From: Tubulanus polymorphus
Taxonomy: Eukaryota > Animalia > Nemertea
Length of the DNA stretch: 64,000 nt
Direction of reading: 5' to 3'
NCBI RefSeq assembly: GCF_964204645.1
Contig: NW_027437453.1
Coordinates: 1 to 64,000, forward strand
The notes beneath the pieces are model-generated. The model worked only from the letters and a program-made list of their open reading frames with translations. It searched no databases and was not told where the DNA came from. The stretch's first letter is position 1, and every line of letters begins with the position of its first letter. The position numbers and the translations under genes are program-made. Of this stretch, positions 20,673 through 59,679 are shown one piece after another.

Positions 20673-20851
<179 letters not shown>

Positions 20852-23187: not shown

Positions 23188-24087
23188 CATTTGAGAACTA
23201 AAACTATGAGATGTACTTTAATTAGCTCTTCTATACGTGACTGGACATTGTGTAAAAGCTTTTGATTAAACTCAGAGGCCTATATGATATGCGTGATCTG
23301 AAAACAATTTATCGCTTTTAAGGGTGTATGCGACAAATAAGGAAAATACAGTTAATTTCCCTGTTTTCGGCTTAAATTTGAAGTAGATGAAAACCTGTTT
23401 TCTTTGAATTGAAGCCACGGGAACCACTTAACCTCATTTTCAAGCCGGCTTAGAATAGGCGATGTTGGGTTATTATGTCATTGATTTGCACAGAACGGAC
23501 ACCAGTATAATCAAATTCCCATCCTCGATGGCGAGCGTTTCCAAAAACCCAGCAACAGTGAGTTCCGGGAACTCATTTTGACATGGAATGTCGGAATCCC
23601 AGCCTTCGATAATTTCCCGTCTTCCTAATGGCCCAATAAGGTCAAATACCGTGATTTACGGAGTTAACGCGGCATTAAACATTTTAAACCTGCCAGGGAC
23701 TCGAATTTAAATCAAGTAGAAAATAAAGAAAAACTCCCAAAAAACTATTCTATCTTATACATTACTATTGTTAAGTCCACTACATATAAACAAGTTGAAA
23801 CCTCATTAATCAGTAGGTTGTACACTATACATCTTTTTAAATATATTATAACAATCGAAGTTTTAGGTTCCAAAACCTGGAACAAAGTTCCGTAATTATG
23901 AAAGTCACAATTATTATAGATAAGTTACTTTATCAAATTCTGATGCTTGATAGAGTGTAAAACATATTTGCAGAGTGTAAGCGCATTTATTTTCCAACCT
24001 CCAATAAAATCCACGAGAAATAGTATTATACACTACAATGACTTCACTGCATGCGCAACGAATCAATAGGCAATACAAACCGTTGTG

Positions 24088-24550
24088 AGTAATAGGGATA
24101 ATAGGCTTTCAAGCCAAAGGTCGAACGGTCGAGCTCGTAAAAAATGAAAAACATAAAAATAATAACAATTTCTACTTGAATTACTCGCGAAACTCATAAA
24201 AATGAAAAATAAATTCTCACACGCTCGAATTTATTTTTCATTTTCATGAGTTTCACTCCTAATTCAAGTAGAAATTGTTATTATTTTTATGTTTTTCATT
24301 TTTACTCACCCGCCCGTTCAACCTTTAGCTTGAAAGCCTATTATCCCTATTACTCTTAAAATATTCATATATATATGAATAACATTTAAATCATTGAACT
24401 TCTAAAATCAATTTTAATAAAAAATATAGTATTAAAATGGAAGCAAATAAGTACTACTGCCCAACATGTAAGATAAATATAGATAAGTCTCAAAAAGCAA
24501 GACACAATAAAACTATAACACATTTAGAGAATAAATTGAAACTAGAATAT
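24088..24550 (+). repeat. Left TIR; contains a 267-bp hairpin (24088-24354) and the first 38 codons of pPolB
   Basis: Near-identical reverse complement of 41765-42228. Confidence 0.95.
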
Positions 24551-27500
24551 AAGGATGATATATTAGAAACTAAATTAGAAGAATTAAAGAATGAAAAAGA
24601 AACATACAAATGTGATACATGTAATCAATCATTCAGTGATAAAAGATATTATAAAGAACATTTAAAATCTATAAGTCATATTAGAAATAAGAATAATGAT
24701 ATTTTAGGTGAAGATTATTTTGATAATGATAACGATAAGAAACAGAAGACAATTAAAAGAATAAAAAATAAATTAAACAATAAAAGACCATACATGGAAG
24801 ATGTAAGAAAATATATTAATTCATTAGATAATAAAAAAGATATAGAGATAACCGAAGCATTTAAAAGTGATATTGGTCCAGCAGCTATCGAGTTTAAATT
24901 TCATAAAGGTAAAACATTAGAAGAAAATAAAAAACATTTAGAAAATATGAAAGAAATAATAAAAATAATTACGGATGTTGAATATCCTAAAATAAGTATA
25001 TCAGTTAAAGTAAAGTTTATAAAATCTGAAGATAAACCAATATATAATATAAATTCTCATTCACAACATATTATATCTAAACAACATATAGATGATAAAT
25101 TAAATAAATGTTATAATGAAATAAAAACTAAAATAGAAGAGAAATATTTTGAAGGATCTGGTTTAATATTTGATGAGATAATATTTATAACTTTACATGT
25201 TTATAACACAAAATATAATAAGTTAACTAAATCAAAACCAATTGATGAAAATAATTTATCATATTATAAAGATGATAGTATAAATGGAACAAGTTATATT
25301 AAATTACCATTTAAAACTAATGGTGTAATAAATATACAAAATTTTGATAATAAATGTTTTATATGGGCAATAATAAGTTGTTTACACCCAGTTGAAGATT
25401 ATAAACAACATAGTTTTAGATTAACTCATTATAAACAATTTGAAAATAATTATAAGATAGATAAATATCCTGTTAGAATTAAAAATATTCCAAAAATAGA
25501 AAGAGATAATAATCTTAAAATAAATGTATTTGATTTAATTAAATTACCAAATACAAAAGGAAATAATATTAAACATTATACATTAGAACCTTTATATCTA
25601 TCAAAAGATTATGATTCAAATAATGTTATAGATATACTATATTATGAAAATCATTACATGTGGATTAAACAAATAGATTTATTTTTTAGAACAGAAAGTG
25701 ATCACCATAATAAAATATATCTATGTAGAAAATGTTTACATAAATTGAGTAATGAAAGTATATTATTAAATCATAAACAACTATGTGATAATCATGATTA
25801 TTGTAAATTAGTTTTACCAAATGAAAAAGATAAAATATTAGAATTCAAAAAATATGATTACAAAAATAAAGTACCATTTGTAATATATGGAGATTTTGAA
25901 TCATTAAATAAAGAATTAACAGATAAAGATAGAAAAGAAATATATTATAAAAGAAAGAAATTAAATTCTAATGAAAATGATTTTTCAGATGAACCACCAA
26001 AAACAAATACAATTAAAAAGATTCATCAATCAGCTGCAGCTTTCGGGTTATATATTAAATCTGATTATCCAGAACTAATTGAAAGTGAATATTATAATTA
26101 TAGAAATGAAAATGTTATCAATCATTTTTGTGACTTATTAATTGAATATGAAATAAGATTTAGTAAATTATTGAATACAAATATAGAAATTATAATGACA
26201 GAAGAAGATAAAGAAGAATTTGCGTTTGCAGATAAATGTTATTATTGTGAAAAACTATTTAATTATAAAGATAAAAAAGTAAGAGACCATGATCATTTGA
26301 ATGGAAAGTTTAGAGGCGCTGCACATGAGAATTGTAACTTACAAGCTAAGAAAATTAACTTTGTACCAGTTATATTTCATAATCTATCAGGATATGATGC
26401 ACATTTATTTATCAAACAGCTATGTTATAAAATAGAAGAAATCAATAATGAAATAGAAATATTAAATTCAAATAGATCAAAAGATAAAATACCAACTTAT
26501 AAATTTAAAATGTTAGCTAAAACATCTGAGAATTATATATCATTCCAATTTGGTTGTCTAAGATTTATAGATTCATATAGATTTTTAAATAGTTCATTAG
26601 ATAACTTATCAAAATCATTAATTGATGATGAATTAAAGATATTAAAAGAATATTACCCAAATTATGATGATTTTAAATTAATGAGATATAAAGGTGCAAT
26701 TCCATATTCTTTCTATAAAAATCATAATGATTTTGAAATAACTGAATTATTGAAAGAACAATTCTATGATGAATTAAAAAATGAATATGTTAAAGATGAA
26801 GTTTATAATAGAACATTGAATATTTGGAATCATTTCAAAATAGAAAATCATGGGCAATTAGTAGATTTATATTTAAAATCAGATGTATTATTATTAACCG
26901 ATATATTCGAAAGGTTTAGAGATGTAAACCTAAAATATTTCAATATTGATCCTTGTCATTGTTATTCATCACCAGGATTAACTTGGGATTGTGGTTTAAA
27001 ATTTACAGATATAAAAATGGATTTGTTAACAAATATAGATCAATTACTATTATTTGAAAAATCTATAAGAGGAGGTGTTTCAGGTGTATTGGGTGATAGA
27101 TATTTCAATGTAAATGATAATCCTGGATATAAATTATTATACATAGATGCAAATAATCTTTATGGTTGGGCAATGATGGAACCACAACCTTATGGGATGT
27201 TTGAAATAACTGAAGTTTTACAAATTGATAAATTTGATTGGAAGAAAAGAATCCTAGATATTGCAGATGATTCAGATACTGGTTACTTCTTTGTTGTAGA
27301 TTTAGAATACCCTGAAAATATTAAATTCAAATCTAGAAATCTAGCATATTGTCCCGAACATAAAACTGTTAAACATGAAGAATTATCAAATTATCAAAAA
27401 AGAATTAAACCCGATAATCATATTCATACTGAAAAGTTAATGGTAACTCAAGAAGATAAATATAATTATGTAGTGCATTATAGAATGTTAAAGTTTTATT

Positions 27501-28471
27501 TGAGACAAGGAATGATATTTAAAAAAGTACATAGATATATTTCATTTAATCAATCTAAATGGTTAGAAAAATATATAGATTTTAATACTACACAGAGAAC
27601 TAAATCTAAAACTGATTTTGAGAAGGATTTTTTTAAATTGATGAATAATGCATTTTATGGAAAAACATGTGAAAATATTAGAAATAGAAGTGATATTGAG
27701 TTAGTTAGTAATGGTAAAAGGATAAAGCATTTACAATCGTATCCGAAATTCATAAGCAACAGAATATTTGATGAAAATTTAGCTGCAGTTAAAATAAGGA
27801 GAACTTCTATGAAGTTCAATAAACCAATCTATGTTGGTGCTACAGTTTTAGAATTATCAAAGTTATTAATGTATAAATTTTACTATAACATATTACAACC
27901 CCATTTTGGAGAAAAAAATATAGAAATATTATATTTTGATACAGATTCTTACATATTAAAGATAAAAAGTGATAATATAAGAGATGATTTAAAAATATTA
28001 AAACATCATTTTGATTTTAGCAATTATCCTGAAGATCATGAACTATTTAGCAATGATAATAAAAAGATTCCTGGTAAGTTTAAGGATGAATTAGGTGGTG
28101 AAGAAATGATAGAGTTCATAGGTATTAGATCTAAAATGTATTCATATAAAACTAAAGAACATGAAGCTAAAAAGTTAAAAGGAATAACCAAAAGCGTTGT
28201 TGAAAAGAATATTCATTTTAAAGATTACATCAATTGTATATTTAATGAAGAAGTTAGAAAACATAAAATGAAATGTTTAAGATCTGAAGATCATGAAATG
28301 TATATTGAAGAGATAGAGAAGATAAGTCTAAACCAATTTGATGATAAAAGATATATTTTAGATGATGGAATCCACACAGTCGCCTATGGTTGCAATTTAG
28401 ATGAATATATAAAATTAAAAAGAGAAGAAACAAAAGAAAATGAGATTATGAAAAGGATTCTAACATGTTAA
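24437..28471 (+). CDS. pPolB: Protein-primed family B DNA polymerase with N-terminal C2H2 fingers and an inserted endonuclease VII-like His-Me finger
   Basis: YGDFES, FHNLSGYD, YLKSDV, YIDANNLYG, KLMNNAFYGK, YFDTDS; CYYC..RDHDH..RG..H..CN. Confidence 0.97.
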   Translation: MEANKYYCPTCKINIDKSQKARHNKTITHLENKLKLEYKDDILETKLEELKNEKETYKCDTCNQSFSDKRYYKEHLKSISHIRNKNNDILGEDYFDNDNDKKQKTIKRIKNKLNNKRPYMEDVRKYINSLDNKKDIEITEAFKSDIGPAAIEFKFHKGKTLEENKKHLENMKEIIKIITDVEYPKISISVKVKFIKSEDKPIYNINSHSQHIISKQHIDDKLNKCYNEIKTKIEEKYFEGSGLIFDEIIFITLHVYNTKYNKLTKSKPIDENNLSYYKDDSINGTSYIKLPFKTNGVINIQNFDNKCFIWAIISCLHPVEDYKQHSFRLTHYKQFENNYKIDKYPVRIKNIPKIERDNNLKINVFDLIKLPNTKGNNIKHYTLEPLYLSKDYDSNNVIDILYYENHYMWIKQIDLFFRTESDHHNKIYLCRKCLHKLSNESILLNHKQLCDNHDYCKLVLPNEKDKILEFKKYDYKNKVPFVIYGDFESLNKELTDKDRKEIYYKRKKLNSNENDFSDEPPKTNTIKKIHQSAAAFGLYIKSDYPELIESEYYNYRNENVINHFCDLLIEYEIRFSKLLNTNIEIIMTEEDKEEFAFADKCYYCEKLFNYKDKKVRDHDHLNGKFRGAAHENCNLQAKKINFVPVIFHNLSGYDAHLFIKQLCYKIEEINNEIEILNSNRSKDKIPTYKFKMLAKTSENYISFQFGCLRFIDSYRFLNSSLDNLSKSLIDDELKILKEYYPNYDDFKLMRYKGAIPYSFYKNHNDFEITELLKEQFYDELKNEYVKDEVYNRTLNIWNHFKIENHGQLVDLYLKSDVLLLTDIFERFRDVNLKYFNIDPCHCYSSPGLTWDCGLKFTDIKMDLLTNIDQLLLFEKSIRGGVSGVLGDRYFNVNDNPGYKLLYIDANNLYGWAMMEPQPYGMFEITEVLQIDKFDWKKRILDIADDSDTGYFFVVDLEYPENIKFKSRNLAYCPEHKTVKHEELSNYQKRIKPDNHIHTEKLMVTQEDKYNYVVHYRMLKFYLRQGMIFKKVHRYISFNQSKWLEKYIDFNTTQRTKSKTDFEKDFFKLMNNAFYGKTCENIRNRSDIELVSNGKRIKHLQSYPKFISNRIFDENLAAVKIRRTSMKFNKPIYVGATVLELSKLLMYKFYYNILQPHFGEKNIEILYFDTDSYILKIKSDNIRDDLKILKHHFDFSNYPEDHELFSNDNKKIPGKFKDELGGEEMIEFIGIRSKMYSYKTKEHEAKKLKGITKSVVEKNIHFKDYINCIFNEEVRKHKMKCLRSEDHEMYIEEIEKISLNQFDDKRYILDDGIHTVAYGCNLDEYIKLKREETKENEIMKRILTC

Positions 28472-28499
28472 TCAATTTCAATAAAAATTTGTATAATAA

Positions 28500-28841
28500 A
28501 TGGAGAGTAAACAAGTACATAGTGAATTCTTAGATAGAATTAAAGATACTTCAAACGTCAAATCTGTAGATTATAAATTTAAAAAACTAACTGAGTTAAC
28601 AATTCACATGAAATATTTAATTACTAACATTGAAACAATTACTAATAAATATGGAGATAAATTAGTAATTCATTTAGAATATGAAGGATTAAAAGGAAAT
28701 ACACATAAATTCAGAACTTATTTACCAGATAGATTTCATAGATTATCAAGTGAAGATCTAGAAGAATTATGTTCTGGGTATTTCTATTTCATATACAAAG
28801 GTAAGAATGAAAAAGGGCACCATGAAATAGATTTCGAATAA
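28500..28841 (+). CDS. Hypothetical Polinton protein (113 aa; possibly beta-rich/OB-like)
   Basis: Intact ORF with TAAATG start, tightly packed after pPolB. Confidence 0.75.
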   Translation: MESKQVHSEFLDRIKDTSNVKSVDYKFKKLTELTIHMKYLITNIETITNKYGDKLVIHLEYEGLKGNTHKFRTYLPDRFHRLSSEDLEELCSGYFYFIYKGKNEKGHHEIDFE

Positions 28842-28858
28842 GAAAATATGTAAAATAA

Positions 28859-29617
28859 ATGGCGGAATTAAAAGAATACAGAATATTTGTTGATTCTAGA
28901 AGGCTTACAAATTATAAATCTCATAATTTACTAGTACAATTAGATAGAGAATTCAAGAATTGTGTTGATTTAAAATTGATAAATATAAGTCTATGTAATT
29001 CTTTTTATAATATATCGAATAAAACTATTGAACATAGAGCCTTTTTAATTTTTAATAAGAATAAAAATGAATGGGCTTATATATATTTAAAACCGGGGTT
29101 ATATAATTTAGATACATTAGCACAAGAAATTAATAGAAAAGCCTGGCACAAGTCAGGTAATAATTCCGGGTTTAATATTAGATTTTTAAAAAGTGAGAGT
29201 ACTGACAAAATAAAGATAAGGTTGTCTGATAGTGAAAAACATGCGTTTATGGTAAAAAAACCTATAGCTAAACTGTTAAGAATTCCTCCAGATAAATCTT
29301 TTACAAATGTTGATGCTACACCAAACTTGATACCTTACACACACTTTTATATTTATTACAATTTAATCGATCCTACAAAAACATTCGAAGCAACTAAAGA
29401 TATAACTTGTAATTCTGGTTTACTAAACATTTTACCATTGAAGAATGTTAAAGAATTTGGAACACAAATAAATTATAATTTAACAGAATGTGATTTCAAA
29501 CCATGCATTCCTCGTTTTAATAATTTTAGATTAGAAATTAGAAATCATAATGGATACTTAATTGATTTAAATAATTTCCCTGTAATTTATGAATTAGTTA
29601 TAAGATGTAAAGAGTAA
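28859..29617 (+). CDS. Minor capsid protein (penton, single jelly roll)
   Basis: IFVDSR, NSFYNI, PGLYNLDTL and C-terminal IRNHNGYLIDLNN.PV.YEL, typical of Polinton/virophage pentons. Confidence 0.75.
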   Translation: MAELKEYRIFVDSRRLTNYKSHNLLVQLDREFKNCVDLKLINISLCNSFYNISNKTIEHRAFLIFNKNKNEWAYIYLKPGLYNLDTLAQEINRKAWHKSGNNSGFNIRFLKSESTDKIKIRLSDSEKHAFMVKKPIAKLLRIPPDKSFTNVDATPNLIPYTHFYIYYNLIDPTKTFEATKDITCNSGLLNILPLKNVKEFGTQINYNLTECDFKPCIPRFNNFRLEIRNHNGYLIDLNNFPVIYELVIRCKE

Positions 29618-29633
29618 TTTTTTCATTATATAA

Positions 29634-29975
29634 ATGAATATAACTGTTGGACCGAGTATATGTTTTGGGTTTGATTTTAAACATGGTAAAGAAATGAGAA
29701 TTAAACTAAATGATGTAATTACTGATATAAAAAGTAAATCATTTAACAATGCATCAATGATTGATAAAGAAAAGTATAATATAGAAAAAGTAATTGATTT
29801 AATTAAATCACCTTTAGAATATTATGAATTAAATGAAGATGGAATTATTGATGATATTAAAAACATATTATCCAAAATATATGATAATCATAAAACTAGT
29901 AATGAAATAAATGTTGAAATAATCATCACTAAGTTAACTAAATATTTTGAAGATAGTAATTTTTTTGATAAATAA
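29634..29975 (+). CDS. Hypothetical Polinton protein (113 aa)
   Basis: Intact ORF preceded by T6-N7-TAAATG. Confidence 0.7.
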   Translation: MNITVGPSICFGFDFKHGKEMRIKLNDVITDIKSKSFNNASMIDKEKYNIEKVIDLIKSPLEYYELNEDGIIDDIKNILSKIYDNHKTSNEINVEIIITKLTKYFEDSNFFDK

Positions 29976-30197
29976 ATGAGTGATAATAAGTGGATAATAA
30001 CTGGATTATATAATGGCGCATTACTATCAGTTGGAACTGTTGGTTATTCAATGGTATTAAAAAAAGTATTCAAAATGGGAAGTGTTAATGTTGATAGATT
30101 TGATATAAATGATATTTTGAAATTAACGTTAGCAGTTACTTTATCTAATTTAACTATTGATTATTTGGAAAAACAAAAATATATTCCTCCCATATAA
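29976..30197 (+). CDS. Small hydrophobic/membrane protein (73 aa)
   Basis: Two hydrophobic segments; TAAATG start. Confidence 0.75.
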   Translation: MSDNKWIITGLYNGALLSVGTVGYSMVLKKVFKMGSVNVDRFDINDILKLTLAVTLSNLTIDYLEKQKYIPPI

Positions 30198-30221
30198 ATG
30201 TATAATTTTTTTACTAAATAA

Positions 30222-30644
30222 ATGGCTTCTGCAATTATAACTATTATAGGATCGGCAATTGTTAACGCTTTAGCATTTACTGGTGGTGGTTATTTATTTA
30301 AACATATTGATAAAAATAGTTCATTAGGAGAACAAAGAAGACATAATTTAGCGTTAGAGAAATACAATAAAGCTGCAGAAGAATATAGAGAAAAGAGACA
30401 AAACTATATGGATTACATCAATAAAGAATTATATGATCAGAAGATTTCAAACAGAGATTTTCAATCAGTTGATGATGCAATGAGTTTATATAACACAGTA
30501 ACAAATAAAGAAAAATTACATCTATACAAACCTAAATTATCAGATTATTATACCCCAAGTAAAGAACAACAGAAATATGAAATAATATGGATTTTAGGTG
30601 GAACAGTTATTGTTATATTTGTTGCTTATAAGTTTACTAATTAG
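30222..30644 (+). CDS. Membrane protein (140 aa) with a hydrophobic Gly/Ala-rich N-terminus, coiled coil and C-terminal TM
   Basis: MASAIITIIGSAIVNALAFTGGG; IIWILGGTVIVIFVAY. Confidence 0.8.
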   Translation: MASAIITIIGSAIVNALAFTGGGYLFKHIDKNSSLGEQRRHNLALEKYNKAAEEYREKRQNYMDYINKELYDQKISNRDFQSVDDAMSLYNTVTNKEKLHLYKPKLSDYYTPSKEQQKYEIIWILGGTVIVIFVAYKFTN

Positions 30645-30663
30645 TAATTTTTATTCTAAATAA

Positions 30664-31098
30664 ATGGAAGATAAAGTTGATAATATTGATATTATTCCTC
30701 ATGATATAAATAAAACTAAATTAAAAACATATTTAGAAAAACAAATATTAGAATTTGAAAGTGACTTAAAGATAAAAAAGAAAAAATATTTAAAAAGTAA
30801 AATTATATATTATTTGATTATAAGTGGTTCGGTTACAATTAGTTCTGTAATAACATTTCTAGCAATATTCAGCCCATTAACACCTTTAGCTATATCAATT
30901 GGTGTATTAGGATTAAGTTCAAGTGTTTTAACTGGTATAAGTTCAAAATTAAATATAAAAAGTAATAAAGAAAAAATTAAAACTAATATAAATGAAATTA
31001 ATAAATTAAAGAACACACTAGATTATATAATAAGTTTAAATGGTCATATAACAGTTGAAGAACAAGATAAATTATTAAAAGAATTAATAAATTATTAA
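30664..31098 (+). CDS. Two-TM membrane protein (144 aa) with flanking coiled coils
   Basis: IIYYLIISGSVTISSVITFLAIF and LAISIGVLGLSSSVLTGI. Confidence 0.8.
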   Translation: MEDKVDNIDIIPHDINKTKLKTYLEKQILEFESDLKIKKKKYLKSKIIYYLIISGSVTISSVITFLAIFSPLTPLAISIGVLGLSSSVLTGISSKLNIKSNKEKIKTNINEINKLKNTLDYIISLNGHITVEEQDKLLKELINY

Positions 31099-31114
31099 TT
31101 TTTTAATTATATAA

Positions 31115-32416
31115 ATGGGGTTTCCAAAAGCTTTCCAATATAATAAATCAATTAAATATAATATTCCGGCAATAGATTTTAAGAAAAATATTACATATAA
31201 AAATGTAGTTTTAGATTCATTAACTAATTTAGAAATTTATGTTAATGAATCACAGTTTTTTATTTCTAAAATGGAAAATATATTTAATACATATGAAGTT
31301 ACTTTTACTCGAGATGAATATCATATATATAAAGTAAAATCTAATATGAAATATTGGCAGAATCAATTAAATTTTGCTGTTTATTGTGCAACAACAGGAT
31401 GTGGAATTAGTTGGAATGATCATTTAAATAACTTAGATAAAAATTTGAAGTATTCTGATTTAAAATTAATTCACACAATATTTAGATTTCACACATATTT
31501 TCAAATCAGAATAATATTAAATGAATTAGAATGTCCTTTACCCGGGTCTAAATATTTTAAAGAATTGGATAATAATATTAATATATCCAAGTTTTATAAA
31601 ATATGTAATGAATTTAATATAAATATTAATTCCGATTTTAGAGCGCATGGTAAATTGCAAGGTGTTGGTGAAGAGTATGAAATAAAAAGAATTGATTATA
31701 TGCATAGAATTTCAGCTTATCATAATTATAAAATTGATAATAATAATGGTTGGGTTAATTTCATTTTAGAAAATGGTGAAGGTTTTACAAAATCAGGTAT
31801 ATAAAGAATAAATCAATCTATTAGAATTTATTTGATATGTATTTTAGGCGCTCAAGTTGAAACAAGATCCCCAATAATTGGAAATGATAACACTTCATTC
31901 GATGCGCAGAAACAATTTAAAGTTTTATTTGAAGATTCAATTCATAATGATAAAAATAGATCGATTCCAGAAAACATTATAAGATATCAAAATTATTTAG
32001 ATAAATCTCATGTAAGACTAAATTATTGTATAGGCCCTAATCTATTAATTATTTCTAATGATTTAGTATTAAAGATGGGAAATATAATTGGTTATAATAA
32101 TCTAATTAAAACTGCAACAATAAATAATTCATTTGGATTAAATGATATAAATAAAAAGATTATTACTGCTCCAAAATTAATGGAAGGTGAAAAAAATAAA
32201 AAACATATTCAATCAACTGAAACTAAAACTAATAATATTAAATTGGTTAATGATTCCAAAATAAAAGATTACAATACATCAGAAAATAATAGAACTGATA
32301 AAATTCAACATGATATAATTAAACTAAATGATGATAATAAATCCCATGAAAATACTAAATTAGCTATAACTTGTATAGGAATTGTAATCGGAGGAATATT
32401 ATATTTTAAATTTTAA
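31115..32416 (+). pseudogene. Polinton protein with C-terminal TM, broken by one in-frame stop (31802-31804)
   Basis: ORFs 31115..31804 and 31832..32416 share a frame (GFTKSGI*RINQSIR); YWQNQLNFAVYCATTGCGIS motif; terminal LAITCIGIVIGGILYF. Confidence 0.8.
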
Positions 32417-32432
32417 TTTTTTTATTATGTAA

Positions 32433-34139
32433 ATGGATGTAGAAGGTGGAGAAGATTATGAAATGGGAGAAATGGGAAATAATAAGGAAGGATATATTGA
32501 TGATGATTATAATGATACAGAAACTAATATTGATAATAATGATGAATCAGCATATAATACTAATTTAGGTGAAGATAATGATTATGATGATGATGATGGA
32601 ATTAATACCGAAGTACGTGAAAAATTAAATAAATATTTAGAAGCTCCTGAAAGGGGTAGAATTTCAACTAGAAGAGAAAGAAAAGAATTTATGGAACAAT
32701 TAGTAAAACAACAAGAAAAATATCCTGATGAACATTTGGAATTATTTAAAATGAAATCTAGAGTAACAGATACAATTGTTAACGAATTATTACCATCAGT
32801 TGTAATAGATGAAATTGATACTGAAGATGTTGTAGAACAAATTTTTAAAGATGACCCATATTTCACAAATAATTTAGAATTTAAAAATGATGCATGGTAT
32901 TATAATCTTGATTTAAATAGGAATATTGTAACAATTCAATTATCTAAAATAGGTCAAGAAAATATTTTTGAACCTGAAATGCGAGCAACATCTACAATTG
33001 AAAATTCAAAAGGTGGTAGAGAATTTCTCAAAATTATATGGAATGCACTCGATAGAATAAATGAAGAAGAACCAATTCCTAAAATTAATATAAACAAATA
33101 TTCACCATTTAAAAATCCAAATCCTACTGATTTTGATCCAGAAATGGAAGAGAATAGAAATCGATTAGATAGATTAAGATCTTCAACACCCGAAACATCG
33201 AGAAGAGACACTCAACAAATTGATAATGATTCAAGTAAATTACAATTAGAAAAACAAATTGATAGATTAAGAGATTCAGAAGAACTGATGAATAGTATAT
33301 CAGATACATCTGGTTCTGAAACTGGAATAAATCGACTGCAATATTTACTAGAAAAAGGATTTCTTAATTTAACTGATGAAGAATTAGAAGCATTTCCTGA
33401 ACAAATACGTAGAGAAATTAAAGGTATACAAGTATCAGCTGATGAAATTGCTAATATTAAGATGAGATTTTCTAAAATAACCATGTTAGAAAAAGAATTA
33501 GTTAATGTAGATGAAGAATTAAAACAATTAGAATTAAATAGAAATCATCAAGTAGTTTATGAAGCTGATTTTGAAAGCAGAAAGTTAGCTTTAGTAAAAG
33601 AAATAGATGATTTAGAATATAACATAAAATTACAAAAAGAAGAAAGAGATATATTATTAAAATCATATGATCTTAATCATATTAAAAAATTAAAAGTTAT
33701 TTTTAAAGATTTGTTGATTAAACCAGATTCTGAAATATCATTAAAAGATAGAATAAAATTATTATTTAAATTAGAAGGAATAACAATTCTTTCAATTCTA
33801 ACATCTGTAACTATGGTATTTACAACAATAGGTTTAGCTATATCAAATGCTTTGAAATCTACTCCTACTCCCACTCCAAATAAACCGGATAAACCTCCAG
33901 GCAATAATTCTATACAAGATAAAGTTAAAGATGGTTTAAAGAAATTAGCAAAATATTTATGGGAACTATCTAAAAAATCTGCTGCAGCTTTACCAGGAGT
34001 TATTGCTTCAATTGTTGGTTTTATATTGAAATCTGCAGGTAATATTCTTAACTTTGCTGCTGAACATATTATTTTATTTTTAATTACAGTTGTTAGTGCT
34101 ATTATTTTTGGTTTAGTAAACATGATTAAAAATAAATAA
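32433..34139 (+). CDS. 568-aa protein with acidic N-terminus, long coiled coil and C-terminal membrane helices
   Basis: Heptad-rich region, TM segment, PTPTPNKPDKPP linker, amphipathic helix, terminal TM. Confidence 0.85.
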   Translation: MDVEGGEDYEMGEMGNNKEGYIDDDYNDTETNIDNNDESAYNTNLGEDNDYDDDDGINTEVREKLNKYLEAPERGRISTRRERKEFMEQLVKQQEKYPDEHLELFKMKSRVTDTIVNELLPSVVIDEIDTEDVVEQIFKDDPYFTNNLEFKNDAWYYNLDLNRNIVTIQLSKIGQENIFEPEMRATSTIENSKGGREFLKIIWNALDRINEEEPIPKININKYSPFKNPNPTDFDPEMEENRNRLDRLRSSTPETSRRDTQQIDNDSSKLQLEKQIDRLRDSEELMNSISDTSGSETGINRLQYLLEKGFLNLTDEELEAFPEQIRREIKGIQVSADEIANIKMRFSKITMLEKELVNVDEELKQLELNRNHQVVYEADFESRKLALVKEIDDLEYNIKLQKEERDILLKSYDLNHIKKLKVIFKDLLIKPDSEISLKDRIKLLFKLEGITILSILTSVTMVFTTIGLAISNALKSTPTPTPNKPDKPPGNNSIQDKVKDGLKKLAKYLWELSKKSAAALPGVIASIVGFILKSAGNILNFAAEHIILFLITVVSAIIFGLVNMIKNK

Positions 34140-34159
34140 TTAATTTTTTTGTTAAATAA

Positions 34160-35407: not shown

Positions 35408-35439
35408 AATTTTAACTTTAATAAAAATATATATAATAA

Positions 35440-36507: not shown

Positions 36508-36511
36508 AAAG

Positions 36512-36889: not shown

Positions 36890-36905
36890 ATTTTGAATTA
36901 GGATT

Positions 36906-38599: not shown

Positions 38600-38602
38600 A
38601 TT

Positions 38603-48641: not shown

Positions 48642-49605
48642 GAGTAGAAATTTCGGCGCTAGTCCAGTATACGACATTATAGTGCGTGTGTAGAGTTACA
48701 CAGCGTTCTTCGGTCAGTGTTAACAGCGTTTGACAGTTGACAGTTGACAGTTAGAGTAAACGACGAGACGAGCTGGCAACCTGTCAACCATGACTGCAGT
48801 GTGGCTTTTATTTCATCTGCCTTTTGCTGATATTTTTCTTCATTATAGATTGTCATTGTTTATCATATATGCATTGTGTAAGAATCATAAGGTTGCGGAT
48901 GACATAGGCCTATATATGTTTAATATTTCGAAAATACCAAAAAAGGTACATGAATAAAATTGCAAATCTATTTCCGGGGCACATTCGCATATACTTTAGC
49001 AATTTCACTGTCAAAACAGGCAAGTTCATGCGTGAATAAGCGTCCCCATATTTACCTATTTAAGTTCATGCTGCATTGAGCGTTACGTTATTTTGGTATA
49101 AAAACGAAATATCAACAACCAATCTGTCAGCACAGATAGCAGCTGATTCAAGCATGAAGCGTGTAGGGTGTCATCTGTCAACCGTCCTGTGGGGTCGTCA
49201 CCTAACTGGTGTGTTGGGTGTCCACCTGTCAACCTTCCTGTGGAGTCGTCACCTAACTGGTGTGTAGGGTGTCATCTGTCTACCGTCCTGTGGAGTCGTC
49301 ACCTAACTGGTGTGTAGGGTGTCATCTGTCAACCGTCCTGTGGAGTCGTCACCTAACTGGTGTGTTGGGTGTCACCTGTAAACCGTCATTTAGAGTCATC
49401 GCCCTAGTATGTAAGGTGTCGCGTGCCATCAGCTGTAGAATATGGATCCCAATCAAGGAATCTATTTTCATGAAACTTCTTTTAGTTCCATATTACTACG
49501 CTTTCATATTTCAGCTTGCGCATTAATTCCCCGATTTACTCCAAAAGTATCTCTACACGTTGCACTATAATGTCGTATATCGGACTTGGGCAGAAATTTC
49601 TTCTC
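48642..49605. mobile_element. Non-autonomous DNA transposon with ~50-bp imperfect TIRs, containing a minisatellite
   Basis: GAGTAGAAATTTC..ATACGACATTATAGTGC..GTGTAGAG versus its inverted copy at 49551-49605. Confidence 0.65.
49161..49420. repeat. 50-bp tandem repeat, 4 copies plus a diverged fifth
   Basis: GTGTAGGGTGTCATCTGTCAACCGTCCTGTGGAGTCGTCACCTAACTGGT units. Confidence 0.9.
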
Positions 49606-49683
49606 CCCGTCGCGCTTTGAGAAAATTTCGCTGTTATTTGAGAGAGGAAAAAGATTTCAGTGAGACTTTTAGAGTTAAGTTTT

Positions 49684-49819
49684 GGCCGGTTCCATACTCA
49701 TCGCTTAGACTTAAGACCAGTCTAAGACTATCTTAGTTCTATAGCTAATCTAACAGCTTAAAACCAGTCTTAAGATTTAAGACCACTTTTGGACTTAAGT
49801 CTCGACTATGGAACCGGCC
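49684..49819. mobile_element. PIF/Harbinger-like MITE
   Basis: GGCCGGTTCCATA...TATGGAACCGGCC with internal TTAAGAC repeats. Confidence 0.7.
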
Positions 49820-50892
49820 CCTGGTGAAGTAATGGAAGGGTTAGGTGCGCTACAGAGCTGCCAACTGTTTCACTGTATTTTCGTAGGGCAGTAGCTTTTT
49901 GCTTCTGCTGTGCCCAAAGCATTTCCTGATAGTATGTCTGAAATCGAATATGTCAGCGTAGTGACACACTAGCTGCAAGTGCTACTAAATTTATCGCGAG
50001 TATAATGAAATCTTTAAAAACCATATATTGTTATAAGCGGCTAAAAATTAATTAGGGGAAAACTGTTACGCTCGCTTGACCAAATAACAACGAGCTACTT
50101 TATACACAAAAAACCGGATGTTCTATTCAATTTTCTTATTGCCATATATTATTTACCATTACATAATATTCATGCATAAAGGCCACCACCTTACAGTTTC
50201 CATATTCTAAACAAACAGATGCGCTTGTATGGCTACGCAAAAGAGATACCCTTGATTCTCATCAGTCCTTTTTTGGGAAATGTGACGAGGGAGGCAGGTT
50301 TTCATTTTCACCTCAACTTTGAAAGAAAAATAAAAGAGGAACAAAAAGCCTTATATCATTCCAAATTCCAAAAGCAACAGTGACGAGGGCGACAATTTCT
50401 TATTTCCTAAATGAGGAAATTGCGTTATGAAAGGCGTCAACGACCTTGAATGGCGACGGAAAGCACTTCGTTAGCGAAATGCTCACCTGCCATTCATAAT
50501 TAAAGTATCGACCGTCAGACAAAAACATTCAAAAGTGTCATTAGGTTGTTTATCGGGATGCGTTTACTTTAAAGAAAGAAACGAAGACAGCTTTCTGCAT
50601 ACGGGACGCATATTCATATTCTGCTTATTTCTTACTGAAGAACGATTTTTGGCGCGCCGAAATGAAACCGATGAGAAACCAGCTAGCTATTATTTTTTGC
50701 GTGGCCTAATACGAGTATAAAGAAATGAATTTAAATAGAAGAAAATACAAGAAATGAACGTGAACGTGATTATTATCCCAACTAATGTATGATGACGTAA
50801 TTTTCACTCTGGATACACTAGATCAACATAAGGTAGATGAATTACACAAGGTTTCAACCGGACCTCGAATTATGGTTATTCATACGTGTTCT

Positions 50893-51789
50893 TCAGACGT
50901 TTCTGGCCAGTAAGAAGTTTTCCAGTGTCATAGGCAACATCGGGAACCCATAACTATATACGACATGTTTACGGATGACATCCTGGATTTGTGCGCGCAA
51001 CGTTTCTGCTAAGGTATCTAAATCTAGGCCAGTGATAAACGTCGGTATCGCGTGGCACATTTGACGAATGGCTGCTTCCTGTTTGTTGACGCATAATCTG
51101 GCTGTTTTCAGAGCTAGGTGCATCAGAAGTGCGGCCTCATCGGTGGAGCGCGAAACCACCTTCATCTTAGCCGCTTTCATGCGTAGGAGTTCATCTATGT
51201 CATATCGAATGAAGGGAATGGATTGACCGTCATCGGCGAGAGCTTGGATTTCTTGACAAACGCTGAAAACCTTTTCATTCGTCGTAGAAGTCAGGAACAC
51301 TCGTCCACACTCGTTAGCTAGCTTATAGAGCGACACATCCAAACATTCTGCCGGATTGTCCAAGTATTAGAGCACGTGCGAAAAAATTATCAAATCATAG
51401 AAGTCATTTGGTAAGAAAGAAGGCGCCTCCTCGCTAGAGAACTTACGTTTATAGACCTCGGATTCGAGGTTGTACTTGCTGGCGAGTGTATTCATTCGAG
51501 TCTCCAGCTCCCGTGCCATAGCGTCGTTTGGTTCAATACAGTCCATGCGTTCGAAACTCACTTCATCGCCGAGTTCGGTCACCACGTCTTCCAACAAATA
51601 TCCGTGAGCCGAACCGACTGATAGCAGCCTCAAACCTCTCCACCTGCTATTGTCTGTTGCCGACAGTTTGTCGCTAGAAGACTTACGGACAGCGCGAACG
51701 GCTTCACATAATCGCTTCGGTCCGAAATTATTTTCGCTGTGATGCAAACGAAATGATCGGAAAGCTTCGCTGTATTTTAGATCATTCAT
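50893..51789 (-). pseudogene. Class I SAM-dependent methyltransferase (histamine N-methyltransferase-like); intronless CDS with one premature stop at 51367-51369
   Basis: LRLLSVGSAHG (motif I), DCIEPN, YDLIIFSHVL*YLDNP (canonical FSHxLYY); the two ORFs are in frame. Confidence 0.8.
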
Positions 51790-54700
51790 CTTCCTGTCCT
51801 GAAGTGTCGTCTACCAAAGAGAAAATATGTTCTGGTCGAAACGAACGTCCGAAGATAATGACGGAATCGGTAGAGAACAATCAGAACTAGCTTTCTGCGC
51901 TGCTATAATGCAAATTCTAGTTCAACTACACCGATTATTCCTAAAGCACCATATTGTTGGGTATTATTGCTTTCTATGCATGAATATAAAGTAGTATAAG
52001 GCCAAATAAAAAAAGTTCTTTTTCGTTACATAAGCTCCATATTCAGATTCGACAGCTAATCGGTAATAAACGCTCATGTATTATAACCACGTCACCAGTT
52101 TTCACGGTGTTAGCTTTCGCGCCATTTTTCTTAATTTCGTTTGCGTGGCGTTCACGCAGTACTGCGAGGTACTCATTTTTGAAGCGCTTCTGAAAGTGTC
52201 GAACTATTTGCGCTCGGTGAAACGCCATTTTTTGAAGAGACTGGCTAACTTTACCTTGACCGAATTCTGGGTCGAAAATTTCGGTCTCATCGATACTTTC
52301 ACACGGAATCAATTCGACTTCGCGACCAAACAGTAACGAGTTCGGTGTTATGGGTTTGATATCCTCGATCTCTGTCGGGATGACGGTTAAGGGGCGGTTA
52401 TTTATCGTAGCTTGTATTTCTTTAATCAAGGTTTGTAATTCGTCTAATGATACTTGTGCATGTGCTAGAACCTTTTTAATAGCGGTTTTGACGATGCCGA
52501 TGCATCTTTCATGCATCCCCGCCATCCACGGCGCTTGGACCGGAGTATATTTAAACTTCATTCTTTTATCCGCGTAGATTTTTTGTGCGTTGTCGGATGA
52601 AGCGATTTCATACAGACGTTTTATCTCAACCTCCCCCGCGATGAAGGTCTTTGCGTTGTCCGAGTATATAATATTCGGAGCCGAATAAGAACTACAGAAG
52701 CGTCGGAATGCCCTGATGTAAGAATCAACGGTTGCGTCTGTAACTATCTCGAGATGAATTGCTCGAGTCGTACAGCATGTGAAAAGACAAATATAAACTT
52801 TATTTTCGCCGCGGACGTATAAATGGCCAGTAAAGTCGATGGCCGTAGCGGTGAATGGTTTTAGCTCATTGAGCCTGAAACTGGGTAATGGTGGTGGTGG
52901 TGGTGGTGCTAGATATGGGCGACCGTACAATCTTTTGCATGTCACGCATTTCCTCAGTATTTTCTTTGCTAGAGATCTAAGAGATGTGATCCAGAAACGT
53001 TTGCGGACTTTGTTGACTGTCATTCCTGTGCCGTAGTGAAATACCGATTCGTGTGCATCCCTGACAATTAATGACGCTAGGTACGACTGGTTTGGGATGA
53101 GAATGGGTTCTTTCCGTGCTTGGGTTATTTCAGCATTTCTGAGCCTGCCAGCACATCTCAATGTTCCTTTCGCATTGCGATAGACCCCTAATTGTCGCAC
53201 TATAGTCGGACACTTTGATGTCTTGTGGGTGAAGTAAGAGTGGTCTTCCGGATATTCCTTCAGTTGGACACTTTGTATCCAGATGACTTCTGCCTCCCGT
53301 ATATCGTCTGCTGAAATGATGTTTTTAGATTTTAACCCTTTTCTGAAGGCTCGTTTGACCAACGCGGTGACCCGTAATAGTCTTCGATAGTCAGTGAAGT
53401 CCTGAACCTGTATGATCTGGTCTATACCAGTAATTTCCGCCTGACCGGTCCTTGTCTGGAATTCGTTTTCAATCTCTAGGCTAACGACGAGTATGACCGA
53501 GGTGTCTGGTTGGTCGTCGGGAGGTGGTTCGTCTTGGTTTTCCATCCACTCTGGGCCAGTAATCCACATTGATCTCATGAGCTCGTCATATGTGGCCCCT
53601 CTCGAAAGGATGTCTGCTGGATTTAGCTTCGACGGTACGTGCTTCCACTCATGCACATTGCAGAGCTGTTTAATCGCTGTAACTCGATTTTTTACGAACA
53701 CTTTAAGTTCCTTTTCTGATTTCAACCAGTACAGGGCTACAGCTGAGTCTGTGAAATAATGATTGTCAATGCCCGCGTATTCCTTCTCGTAGATTCTTCT
53801 GATTGAATCGGCGTATTTCGCTGCCATAACCATGCCCTCTAATTCAAGGTTTGGGACTGTTCACCCGGCCTTTGCTTTAGAGATGACCTTGTTTTTCGAG
53901 CCTATGAGACGTATTTTGTTGCCTTGCTTTCCATATATAACACAGCCTACCGCACTATTTGGGGCTGCGTCGCAAAATACCATAAGTTTAATCGGTGACT
54001 CGTTGTCGAATCCGAGCCACCTCGGAAATTCGATCTGATGAGTCTGATTTAGATTGCTGTGAATGATGCTCCATTCCTTTAGCTCGCTTTGGTCTAATTC
54101 TTGATCCCACTCTTTGGACGACTGCCAGAGTTTGTTGATAAACACCTTAGCAGTAACTGTAACTGGAGCAACCAGACCTAGTGGGTCAAATAATGCCGCT
54201 GTGCGTGATGCGACCTTTCGCTTTGTTATGGTGGCTTCAGTCTGTGTCATTGATTTCCTGGCTATAGTTATGACGTCATTATCTGCATTCCAGGTCATTC
54301 CTAGCAGTGGCACTGATGTTGTATCTCTCACATGGATATCTCGGTTGGTTGCCTTTTTCATTAGGAGTTGAGAGTTAGATGCCCACTGCCTCAGTCTGAA
54401 GTTACCCCGTTGCATTATCTCCATAGCTTCTTCGAAGTATTCAGATACTTGGTCTTCTTTGCTTAATGTACTGAGTAGATTGTCAACGTAGAGTTTCATA
54501 CCCATGTCCTGTGCCACCCACGAGTCTCGGTGGGCGTCAAAGTGTTTCGACAGGACAGCCGCCAGCGTGAATGGGCTCGCCGTAGATCCAAATATGACAG
54601 TATTATGTTGGTATGGGACGATGCCCTTCGATGGATCGTTATCCTTATACCAAAGGAAACGTACGTATCGTCTATCTTTCTCCGCTAGTTGGACTGACAA

Positions 54701-55835
54701 AAAGGCTCGGGCGATGTCGGCTGACATAGCGACTACACCCGTTCTGAACTGCATGATCAGTGAGGGCAGATCCACCAGCATATTGGGCCCTTGGTATAAA
54801 CAGTCGTTCAGTGAGGGTGAACCTGCGCTCGCGTCAAATACTATTCTCAGTGGAGTTGTTGGGCTGTCTTTCATGATGAAGAAGTGTGGGATGTAATAAC
54901 AACCCTCTTCCAACAAGGCTTGGTCTGGGTTTGGGATTTCCGAGACAGTTCTTCTCAATATGCTCTTGCATCACCTTGGTGTATGCGCCCATAAGTTCAA
55001 GGCGTTGTAGACGATTAGTTACTTGTTTTAATCTGTACCTACTCTGGGTTAGATTGTTTTGAAGTTCTGAGTGGTCTTCCTTCCATGGTAGCGGTGCGTA
55101 GTAGCAGTTATCCTTGTACTGGATTTTCTCTTTATAATCCTCTAAGAATATATTATCCTCTATGCATCCTTGATCTTCGAAATGGCCAGGGAATTCGGCG
55201 GTATTATTCCTCAGGAATTCGTTGAGTATCGTGTCACTAAATTTTTGGTTAGCATCCCCGATCTCTAGCATATCAGAAACTGCGGTAAGCGTGAATGCAT
55301 GTGGATTGTGGTCATCTTTGTACTACGGACCATAAACAAAACAACCGAGATTAGAAAATTGGATGATTGGCCCACCGGGGATATTTTCCGTACGGTTTTC
55401 GAGGAATAAATATAGTGACCGCAACCGATTAATATATCCACGGTGAATAACTCAGCTTCGAAATTATCCGCGAGGTGGTCTAATCTAGATATTTCCGGAA
55501 ACTCAAGACATTCGGCCCATCGTTTGCGATATATGGGCTTAACGATTTCATTCGATATGGCGACATCGATATGTATCGTACCTTCGGTGGTAACGATGTC
55601 ATACACGCGTTTTGAAGTATGACCCCCAAAACCATTTACGGTCAACGATCGTTGGTAGCGCGGTTTTAACCCGTGAGCGGTGGCTATATCCTTGCGGATG
55701 TAACTGAGCATGGAACCGTGGTCGAGAAGGAGATTTGCATTTTTAAACTTATGACCATTATTTTCCAGATTAATTTGGCCCGTTTCCAACAAAACTATAT
55801 CGCTGGGAGCAACGGCAGCCTGAATCGCATTGCTT

Positions 55836-55950
55836 TCACAAGTATATTCCGATTGATTTTCGCATGTATATTCCGATTGATTTTCGCATGTATTTTCCGA
55901 CTGATTTTCGCATGTATATTCCGTTGTTTGATTCGACAAACTTTCGCATG
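55836..55950. repeat. 24-bp tandem repeat within BEL gag (TCENQSEY)n
   Basis: GATTTTCGCATGTATATTCCGATT-like units. Confidence 0.8.
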
Positions 55951-57248
55951 TTTCGCTCACAATCTCGTGATTGTGGACTCGATTCGCATTTGGTTCGATT
56001 AATCCAATGTTTGTGTTTTTGTTTTGTATCGCTGCGCATCCAGTAGTAGTAGTTAAATTATCTCTGTGTAGACTCGTGTGGTGTTGTCTGTTGCACTTCA
56101 TACATCTACCCGAATTCCGGCAATTTTTTACTCAATGGTTCGGTTTCAGGCAATTAATACACAGTTGCCTCTCTTCAGTTTTCGCTTTTCGATTTTCGAG
56201 ATTTAGATGACATCTGGTAGGTCCATGTTCTCCGTCGCAGAATGGACACTGGTATCTTCGCTGGTTTCCGACAAAGGACGTAGTTGTCATTCTCGGTCGC
56301 TGTTGGTTAGACGATGTTGATGTGATTTCTCCAATGTTTTCAAGTTGTTCTTCGAATTTCTTAATAAATTCATCGAGTTCAAAATCACCTGCTTGGCCAC
56401 ATGTGCCCATCTTTTCGAGAAAGACTCTCGGGATTTTCTTTTCCATTGATGTGACAATAAATGAAGCACATGCGTTGACATCTACGCCCAGGTGTTGTAG
56501 AGATCGAATGTTGGCGTTGGCTTGATTGACGAATTGTGATAGAGACGCAAAGTTCATAGCCGCTGGTGGTAATTCGTGAAGGTTGTTTACGTGAGCGCGA
56601 ACTATTTTACGTTTCTGTCCGAATCGATCCGTGAGTATTGATATTAAGGAGTCCAAATTAGAACCGGACGCGTGGATACCCTTAACGGCATCAAGTGCGT
56701 TACCTCTCAGCTGCCCGATTATGTAGTTAAATTTAGTGATTTGTGAGAATTTACCCATCAATACGTCAGCTTGTATTGTCTCCCAAAATGATGTCCAATC
56801 AGTATAATTCCCGCTGAACGTTGGTAATTTCAGTTTGGGTAACTGCGCGGTCTTCTGGGTGTCGGTATCCTGGATCTGCTCAAGCTTGGTGTTCTGATGA
56901 TTACGATTTTCGAGGTACTTTTTTATTTTCAAGAGTCCTATGCGTTCCTGGCTGCGTCTTTCATTCGAATCTTTGATTTCTTTTTCGAATTCATCGTCGT
57001 CTTTTCGCATTTCTTGGATTCTTTCTGCTAACGTTTCTCTGGATTCGTGGACCAGTCGCATCTCGTCTAATCGTGCTTCGATTTCGGTTGCATCGTCTTC
57101 TGCGATATTGACTTCTTGCATAAGTATTAGGATTCGCTCGTAGTTCGTATCAAATGTGTCGATATCCGCATTTCTTCGTTTTCGGAGCTGGTCCAGCGTT
57201 TCTTTTTCTTTTGGCATTTCTGATCGTCTAGAGGTTTTGGTTTGTGTA

Positions 57249-57266
57249 ATCCTGGTCACGGCACCA
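57249..57266 (-). promoter_or_regulatory. tRNA-His primer binding site
   Basis: Reverse complement TGGTGCCGTGACCAGGAT, directly abutting the LTR. Confidence 0.85.
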
Positions 57267-57523
57267 TGTCGTTACGAGTGTAACGGTGGAGAATTGAACA
57301 TAGAAAAACGTGACTGCTTGGTTAAGATATCATAGCAAGAGTGTCCTTTATTTTACGTAATGATAACAAAAGAGTATAGTACGCATGCGCGGGCCAGCAA
57401 AGATGAAGAGAAACCGCAGATATAAACCAGATGTAAACAGCTATATGCATGAATAGAATTAGTAACGCTTGACTTCAATATAGTTATGTAAGTTGGGTGA
57501 GAATTGGGACGCAGTTTCCGACA

Positions 57524-59274
57524 GTGTCAATGCGAACTGTTTCACATATTTGATATATTTTCATGATATAGAATATCCATTCTATTTGTTTTGTTGTATG
57601 AAACCGGAACGTCCGATCATAAGTCCAACCTAATTTGGCTCATTCTCATAACAATGATAATCATATCTAATTTAACTGATTGTGATCGAAACTACACTGA
57701 ATATATTAATATATTATTTAGATAAAACGAAACTTGTTTAAACTAGTGGATTAACATAGTGGATTTTCCATCTGAGTTCTATAAGGGTTTCTATTTTCAA
57801 GAAAATGAACAACTGAATCAAACGACCAATTGTTATCACTACACGATAATTAAAATATCATTTGGTTTAATCTTATCACACCATTATCGCATCAGAATAC
57901 CACGAGCACCGGCTAAAAATATAATTCTAAATGTGATAACTCTTAATGATGACACAACTATTTCGAATCAGTTGCAATGCCGCCTACTACCATGGCCTGA
58001 TAGTTCACATTATTTATAAATAACTTTCGCATGGTTCGCTCTTTCTTCGAGACCATGCATTTGACCGCTGTAAAGACTTTCTTTGTAGGCCTATACTAGA
58101 GCATTTTATTTATAATTCCGTAACATTACAACATAAAGCCACATAGACCGAAAGCGACCAGGCCATTCCGTCTACTCGATAATACCTATTGCACATGGAC
58201 ACGAACTTCAATAATACACACACTATACATCACTGCTGGATATTAAGAACACTTAAAAGTCAGTGTATACATTGAACATCCTCAGATTCGTGATTATTTG
58301 CTACATATGTCATTTCTAGCTATTACATGGGCATATACACTAATACAGATTAAAGAGCTGACATTTTATCTTTAATCAGTATTCAATCACCATCACTATC
58401 ATATAGCAATAGATCCGCTCGCGTATTGTGAATCACTTTGAAAATAACCCGAAAGTGGAAAAAGTATAATACACTGTGTCATAAAAGATCCAGTTGCGAG
58501 ACGATACTGCGATTCAGCTAAACAACTTTTCCATCAATTCCGTTAATAGAAATAAAAGCAAACAATGCATTTAGAATATATCAAAAATTTGAATGTTTTT
58601 GAACATTTGAATGTTTTGCTTTGCATGCTAGTAACAAAATAGATAACTGATTTGTGTTGAACCAGTTCCTTTAGGAATAAGATGAAAAGCTTATTTTTTG
58701 GTAGTAGTTCATGTCACCTAAATTCTATTATGTCTTGTTTAACTGAAAACTTTAATAATATCTATAATGCTGGGTATATATATACACGTACGTGGGTAAG
58801 ATGATAATTGTTCCGTATAATTTCCTACCGGTTAACTTTTATTCATGTATTAAAAATTGAATTAATTGAATTTCGTGGTCGATTCCTTGGCGGGTTTTGA
58901 ATTCTTAATGTCGTGTCAAAATGAGGTCCGCAAATCATTTGAGTAATTGAGTCTATCGGGTCATGGTGGAGATGGAAAATTATCGAAGGCTTGGATTCCG
59001 ACATTCCATGTCAAAATGAGTTCCCGGAACTCACTGTTGCTGGGTTTTTGGAAACGCTTGCCATCGAGGATGGGAATTTGATTACACTGGTGTCCGTTTT
59101 GTGCAAATCAATGACATAATAACCCAACATCGCCAATTCTAAGCCGGCTTGAAAATGAGGTTAAGTGGTTCCCGTGGCTTCAATTCAAAGAAAACAGGTT
59201 TTCACCTACTTCAAATTTAAGCCGAAAACAGGGAAATTAACTGTATTTTCCTTATTTGTCGCATACACCCTTTT
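57524..59274 (+). mobile_element. Second copy of the right part (incl. ~300-bp TIR) of the long-TIR element; paralogous to 44688-47279 minus the LINE
   Basis: Colinear high identity over ~1.75 kb. Confidence 0.9.
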
Positions 59275-59679
59275 TTATCGCTTATGCGCGAAGAAACGTT
59301 TTACATTGGAATGTCCAACACCAAGATTTGCGGTCCAAACACGCATATGTGAGAAAAGGTCAAGAACAGAAAATATACAAAGCTACCGAACTGCGGCGGA
59401 TGGTAGCAGATGCTGAGCGAAAACAGTGCATCCTGCTGTCAGTTTGTGCAGTCGTTGTAGGTCAACGCGTTATCAGAATCATTCGCACGATAGGTTTAAT
59501 CGAGTGAGCATATCCGTTTGGAGCTGAGCAGCAGAATTTACTTATTCTTCTATTCGAAGGTAAGATTTTATCTATACTTAGTTATAATTAACGGGTTTTA
59601 GTATAAATACTGATATAAGTCTAACAGACTTTTGAATGACCAAGTCCGTGTAAATGGGTTATCAATATCGTGCCTTCTT

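Follow-up and report, generated by a model that had tools for sequence, protein, structure and literature searches.

Whether the ends of two different transposon copies can act together in an animal genome, and carry the DNA between them to a new place, is the question raised by a locus of the ribbon worm Tubulanus polymorphus. The window analysed is the whole stretch of 64,000 nucleotides (nt) from positions 1 to 64,000 of contig NW_027437453.1 (RefSeq assembly GCF_964204645.1, forward strand). The block in question, at 23320-59272, is bounded by two copies, A and B, of a DNA transposon with long terminal inverted repeats (TIRs), between which lie low-copy DNA with a methyltransferase gene and a truncated BEL/Pao retrotransposon. 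The block is a single insertion interrupting one contiguous sequence, probably brought in by a transposase that used the left end of copy A together with the right end of copy B and took along what lay between them.

Element ends and copies A and B

One left and two right TIRs are present, as an earlier note made from the letters alone had reported: the left TIR starts with AAGGG at 23320, and the right TIRs end with CCCTT at 47279 and 59272. In a comparison of the window with itself, the right ends fall within longer direct repeats, 44688-45508 together with 46357-47280 matching 57524-59273 at 93-94%. Copy A is the label used here for 23320-47279 and copy B that for 57524-59272, of which only a right part is present. 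In the lines below, TSD stands for target-site duplication.

23320-47279, unstranded: copy A, a DNA transposon with long TIRs, non-autonomous and about 5 kb long once its two inserts are subtracted
23320-23618, plus strand: left TIR of copy A, near-perfect over 299 bp and followed by some 100 bp that match less well
46981-47279, minus strand: right TIR of copy A, inside the block and unused in the last insertion, with no TSD in common with the left flank
57524-59272, unstranded: copy B, right 1,749 bp, 93-94% to copy A in the same orientation, left part gone beyond the BEL element
About 58974-59272: right TIR of copy B

Ten public sequencing runs were listed, five of which contain part of the stretch; four were compared over 47200-60800 and four over 22850-23385, with read depths that are relative and not calibrated to absolute copy number. 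No RNA run with the stretch was found among those listed.

Within 23320-23618, 2 sites distinguish the left TIR from the near right TIR and 7 distinguish it from the far one, in agreement with a count that had been made by eye, and at seven of the eight informative sites of 23320-23649 the left TIR is of copy A type (one-sided binomial p 0.035). Copies A and B represent subfamilies and not one decayed copy, because six insertions or deletions that distinguish them segregate in run X6, each in 25-73% of reads. Given TIRs that match within a subfamily, the outer ends of the block come from two different copies in direct orientation. As a simple insertion at this site, copy A was rejected, its flanks having no TSD in common.

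The family terminus lies at 23320, where 135 run X6 reads have loose ends with mixed flanks. A further 77 reads of this run match inward from 23325 and differ in the first five bases, and may belong to a sister family whose terminus is a variant form. Four metagenome loci with the 19-nt terminus pattern had no match to the window beyond that pattern at E 1e-3, and were dropped as chance. Copy A is non-coding, the longest of the 16 open reading frames (ORFs) of at least 45 amino acids wholly inside 42227-45500 reaching 76 amino acids.

The empty site and its target duplication

The insertion is revealed by a contig of run X1 (652 nt, depth 109.3, minus strand) that joins both flanks of the block without the block itself. 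Its letters 1-497 correspond to 59273-59769 with 5 differences and letters 493-652 to 23161-23320 with 2 differences, the records of two comparisons being equated by length, depth and strand; the opposite order of the pieces does not fit. The two pieces overlap by five letters, TTTTA, found at 23316-23320 and 59273-59277, and the last of these doubles as the first base of the element. Over 23210-23299 this is the sole contig of run X1, and it is unbroken at 23319/23320. The zero depth of runs X2 and X4 over the left flank was left unused, as gaps prove nothing.

23316-23319, plus strand: left TSD, TTTT, 4 bp on the perfect-TIR reading, from the overlap of the contig pieces
59273-59276, plus strand: right TSD, TTTT, from the same overlap
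23308-23317, plus strand: left copy of the 10-bp repeat TTTATCGCTT, half of a small tandem duplication pre-existing in the target, not a TSD

The length of the contig discriminates between models of the insertion. A 4-bp TSD predicts 652 nt, a 10-bp TSD 643 nt, a footprint retaining both 4-bp copies 656 nt, and the absence of any TSD 660 nt; of these four, the 4-bp model alone gives the 652 nt observed, and the footprint was rejected. Because both flanks are joined at exactly this length, the block is one insertion with TTTT duplicated. It follows from the same contig, which joins the flanks without it, that the DNA of 47280-52073 is not native to this position, as had been proposed.

The earlier note had taken the 10-bp repeat for the TSD of a Mutator-like element (MULE) family with 9-10-bp duplications. 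The repeat is present where it was placed, beginning at 23308 and at 59274 with no copy after 47279, and it is not a product of chance, since a run of at least 10 letters common to two random 14-nt flanks from the window arose in only 19 of 200,000 draws. The empty-site contig, however, retains both copies in tandem and lacks only the element and four Ts, so the repeat is an earlier tandem duplication in the target. An empty site such as was to be sought turned up in run X1, although not in the single-repeat form expected. A TSD different from the one proposed had been named as grounds for abandoning the idea of a composite; it removes the MULE label only, because the empty site joins the same two ends, and the unit stands.

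The target appears to be repeated at low copy: run X6 depth is 58-86 over 23188-23319 and 59277-59769, against 20-29 for the carried DNA. A high-copy repeat ends at 23187, adjoining it. The TSD at the outer ends and the empty site, both of which are expected of a composite transposon, come from one contig that may be allelic or paralogous.

The interior of the block

The inserts, the BEL element and the methyltransferase ORF were all found where the earlier note had put them.

24088-42228, unstranded: Polinton/Maverick, 18,141 bp, 6-bp TSD GTTGTG (24082-87 and 42229-34), TIRs identical at 461 of 462 positions
45509-46356, plus strand: 848-bp insert with a 7-bp TSD, ATATACA, and a TA-rich tail
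47280-47343, unstranded: 64-bp end of another high-copy repeat, into which copy A originally inserted; the rest of that repeat is missing here
47344-52073, unstranded: 4.7 kb of low-copy DNA carried as cargo, including a mid-copy repeat at about 48560-49470 and a very high-copy miniature inverted-repeat transposable element (MITE) at 49684-49825
50896-51789, minus strand: gene like those of class I S-adenosylmethionine (SAM) methyltransferases, intronless, 298 codons, one in-frame stop at codon 141
52074-57523, minus strand: BEL/Pao retrotransposon with stops and frameshifts, cut at 52074

The two inserts interrupt copy A. The Polinton has Pfam matches to an rve integrase, a Pox_A32 ATPase and a chromo domain, and it may have entered before or after the move of the block, which measures 35,953 bp with it and 17,806 bp without. 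It is young and of 24% GC, with a 164-bp internal near-palindrome in each TIR, stops in several ORFs, and one right-terminal base unlike the left end. A second, decayed Polinton end is visible at 3163-3282, a 120-bp match to the Polinton TIR at 87-88% just before a Pao/BEL fragment (3433-4616). The 848-bp insert, which had no Pfam match, is presumably the 3' fragment of a long interspersed nuclear element (LINE), judging by its resemblance to such elements.

The stub at 47280-47343 records an earlier position of copy A. Eleven contigs of run X2 extend before 47280 in one sequence (agreement 0.87) that is unlike the left flank in the window, and beyond 47343 the repeat continues into mixed sequence in 38, 16 and 13 contigs of three runs. 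As the natural upstream sequence of the stub is not the left flank found here, copy A once had another left neighbour: its first insertion was into another repeat, whose left part has since been lost.

The carried DNA has the lowest run X6 depth of the stretch (the 20-29 given above, in four bins), the MITE with its internal repeats standing out at a bin depth of about 2,300; a 50-bp tandem array occupies 49122-49403. In run X1, four contigs between 47595 and 51439 cover the cargo (2,736 nt aligned, 7 differences, depth 70-76), which is present without a filled left junction. The BEL contig of this run (depth 110) stops exactly at 52074, as does one contig of run X2, and the junction of cargo and BEL is spanned by contigs of runs X2 and X3. 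Because the cargo contigs coexist with an unbroken empty site, the sample of run X1 presumably has the cargo and its BEL junction at a different locus. The BEL element has a 5' long terminal repeat (LTR) at 57267-57523, with the primer site adjoining, and abuts copy B; no 3' end or 3' LTR of it was found in the window.

A proposed history and its rivals

The donor locus would have held copy A about 10 kb upstream of copy B in the same orientation, copy B having already lost its left part and the BEL inserted in it its 3' end. A transposase supplied from elsewhere would then have skipped the inner right end and joined the left end of A to the right end of B, and cut-and-paste between these ends would have carried 4.7 kb of low-copy DNA, the methyltransferase pseudogene and the truncated BEL, 18-36 kb in all, depending on when the Polinton arrived. 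Such a pairing accounts for the TIR pattern, for the half-target left orphaned next to the inner end, for the TTTT duplicated outside, and for the presence of the cargo elsewhere. Histories based on recombination pair a resident left end with the far right end; they are opposed by the left TIR, which instead matches the inner right end. A crossover could be hidden only in the first 67 of the 3,222 bp of shared left sequence (2%). That the block moved as a unit, as the earlier note had it, is upheld to the extent that the outer ends delimit one insertion; its movement by a transposase is supported, not proven.

Several points weigh against this history. The empty site is one contig from one run, and may be paralogous rather than allelic because the depths of the flanks and of the contig suggest a low-copy repeat; the run of Ts would permit a duplication of 2-5 bp if the ends are an imperfect pair. 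The donor locus has not been seen, no transposase was found in the element among the ORFs of 42227-45500, and among the reads and contigs listed there is none across 23319/23320, 47279/47280 or 57523/57524. Contigs show presence and not absence, and the second position of the cargo is deduced from them; the first 327 letters of the longest run X1 cargo contig are unplaced, and copy A may or may not adjoin the cargo there. The TIR argument takes for granted that, within a subfamily, left ends agree with right ends, and it includes no left end from an element of copy B type. In addition, the outermost informative site of the left TIR, 23376, is of copy B type, and transposase-made breaks may cluster at element ends, where a crossover could be hidden.

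The last two points bear on a history in which copy B inserted here, duplicating TTTT, the BEL entered it, and cargo and copy A arrived later, so that no composite ever moved. The later arrival could have come about through gap filling, with an ectopic copy A and the adjoining flank as template, or through nesting and then recombination between left parts, and would explain in one step the outer TSD, the lost left part of copy B and the lost 3' end of the BEL. Gap filling is also the commonest reported origin of single-copy Pack-TIRs in animals (PMC8277862), and as such captures are mostly repair products this history stays alive. It nevertheless predicts a left TIR of copy B type, against seven of eight sites of copy A type, and the exception at 23376, where T is carried by 95 of 415 run X6 reads, is expected if this is a right-end-only variant of one subfamily. 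It also predicts the cargo-BEL junction only together with a filled left junction, whereas run X1 has a break exactly at 52074 and the empty site unbroken. Assembly in place is accordingly unlikely, although it deserves to be taken seriously.

A DNA circle, formed by recombination between right parts at the donor and integrated by homology into a resident solo copy with its TSD untouched, would give the same order of parts and keep the outer TSD, and integration of this kind has been proposed for KolobokP multimers (PMC9587614). The left and far right TIRs, as ends of the same resident copy, should then match best, yet they match worst (7 against 2 differences), and no solo-copy allele of this target appears among the runs compared, though contigs cannot prove absence; we regard this origin as improbable. 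A false join between haplotypes or between loci, made through the near-identical copies A and B, could account for a block which, like three of its junctions, no listed read or contig spans. Outer flanks that fit together as one contiguous sequence, with its target duplicated, would not, however, result from a single misjoin, and the cargo-BEL junction has contigs across it in runs X2 and X3, which makes an assembly artefact very improbable. The reality of the 10-bp repeat, and the long TIRs and 7-12-bp TSDs of MULEs (PMC10741241), would favour a composite of the MULE kind, having a TSD of 10 bp and 1-2 additional bases at the terminus. Against this stand the empty contig, of 652 and not 643 nt, and the family terminus at 23320, which leaves three bases unexplained under a 10-bp TSD, so that such a composite is contradicted, unless this contig represents the footprint of an excision, and hardly any likelihood attaches to it.

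The element family and comparable systems

Sola elements were reportedly defined by Bao et al. in 2009. According to PMC10741241 and PMC3627910, they have TIRs of 11-1124 bp, a 4-bp AT-rich TSD, and copies of 2-9 kb. The family described here falls within all of these ranges: its TSD is TTTT, with an A-rich flank consensus before 23320 (from one site, with 2-5 bp possible), its near-perfect TIRs of 299 bp agree, although TIR length discriminates weakly, and its copy is about 5 kb long. On this likeness the family is likely Sola-type, although the terminus AAGGG has not been paired with a described Sola subgroup, there is here no transposase for comparison, and the TSD is from one site. Nothing further about termini came from PMC4455052, PMC10294476 or PMC10175614. 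The 7-12-bp TSD of MULE/MuDR elements disagrees with the 4 bp of the empty contig. The 5'-RR termini of Kolobok (PMC9587614) are found here as AAGGG and CCCTT, but the TTAA duplication of that group is not, TTTT lying at the outer ends and TGAA after the inner end.

KolobokP consists, in the same source, of direct-repeat copies of 450 or 660 bp with TIRs of at most 18 bp and a TSD of 3-5 bp, which enclose their own transposase and a nuclease and occur in marine invertebrates including Nemertea (PMC9587614). The direct-repeat copies flanking an internal region, the 5'-RR termini and the size of the TSD are shared with the present locus, in which, by contrast, 5-kb copies with 300-bp TIRs lie around foreign DNA; the repeats here are of at least 1.7 kb and the interior is low-copy DNA and a BEL. 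Spy elements have no TSD, an insertion point between A and T, and GGG..CCC termini. A reading of this type was rejected, as it predicts an empty contig of 660 nt against the 652 observed.

Maize crosses provide good evidence of macrotransposition, and composite transposons abound in bacteria; large transposing elements flanked by foldback elements in Drosophila are a further precedent. The maize Ac/Ds macrotransposons are said to have been described by Huang and Dooner in 2008 and by Wang et al. in 2022. They use the outer ends of two nearby hAT elements to move blocks of 10.3 and 28 kb with an 8-bp TSD (PMC9910405). In both systems the outer ends of two copies bound a block of tens of kilobases containing host DNA, with the TSD outside; the maize evidence comes from crosses, whereas the present case is a natural invertebrate sequence in which movement is deduced, with a non-autonomous long-TIR family and a 4-bp duplication. 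Animal Pack-TIRs have filler inside one element, and most single-copy captures are ascribed to repair (PMC8277862). They resemble this locus in that their TIR ends surround host DNA, copied or moved, that includes a gene. The present block differs from them by a third, intact terminus in its interior and by outer ends derived from two subfamilies.

The locus is a natural case of a known process, gene relocation by paired ends being seldom documented in animals, and in the open-access text no described case was found in Sola or in ribbon worms. It bears marks that separate transposition from repair: an empty site, an outer duplication, an unused inner end, an orphaned half-target, and TIRs marked by subfamily. 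Were the donor to be found, this would be a clean natural relocation of a whole gene by two element ends, probably of Sola type.

The carried methyltransferase gene

The gene is broken here by its in-frame stop, so no new function has been shown for it. At the stop, 38 of 38 run X6 reads have another letter, making the stop private to the window; it may be an assembly error. Its GC content is 47%, against 37-39% in the surroundings.

Its close relatives are five T. polymorphus proteins only, at 72-74% identity, with two further proteins of the same species more distant. A profile search of 1.84 billion representatives gave 12 matches, of which three were Tubulanus proteins and the other nine had E values from 3e-11 to 8e-4; five of these nine were looked up, and the one that is named is a bacterial class I SAM methyltransferase. 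Pfam gave Methyltransf_23 only, sub-threshold at E 0.0036, and the profile had no match among solved structures at E 0.1. The searches gave no intact protein of 99% identity, a result in keeping with a move after which the haplotype had no donor copy, but also with an unannotated donor or another species. The intronless family is restricted to Tubulanus among named matches, with seven loci on at least four contigs and very distant next relatives that are unnamed or bacterial, and its origin by horizontal gene transfer is possible.

The idea that the gene is an extra ORF of the BEL element was rejected as unsupported, the BEL being cut at 52074, before its normal 3' end. No longer, fused BEL-methyltransferase protein was found among 3,852 candidates, which is weak evidence, and no published BEL carrying a methyltransferase was found among the papers that a literature search listed; one point remains in favour of the idea, a contig of run X3 crossing the 52074 junction unbroken at BEL-like depth. 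It is conceivable, if rather doubtful, that paired ends of a Sola-type family are a recurring vehicle in this lineage of worms, as a multi-copy composite, which scattered this possibly microbe-derived methyltransferase family over its seven Tubulanus loci on at least four chromosome-scale contigs.

Other features of the window

Three ORFs on the minus strand at 5197-13073, encoding a DUF7869 protein (226 amino acids), a product of 322 amino acids and a C2H2 zinc-finger protein of 895 amino acids, form what looks, by resemblance, to be an EnSpm/CACTA-type element. A perfect tandem duplication of 306 bp, 100% identical, lies at 60879-61491 and is either recent or an assembly artefact. The window also holds a 24-bp minisatellite at 2610-2984 and a long (AT)n run at 20678-20850.

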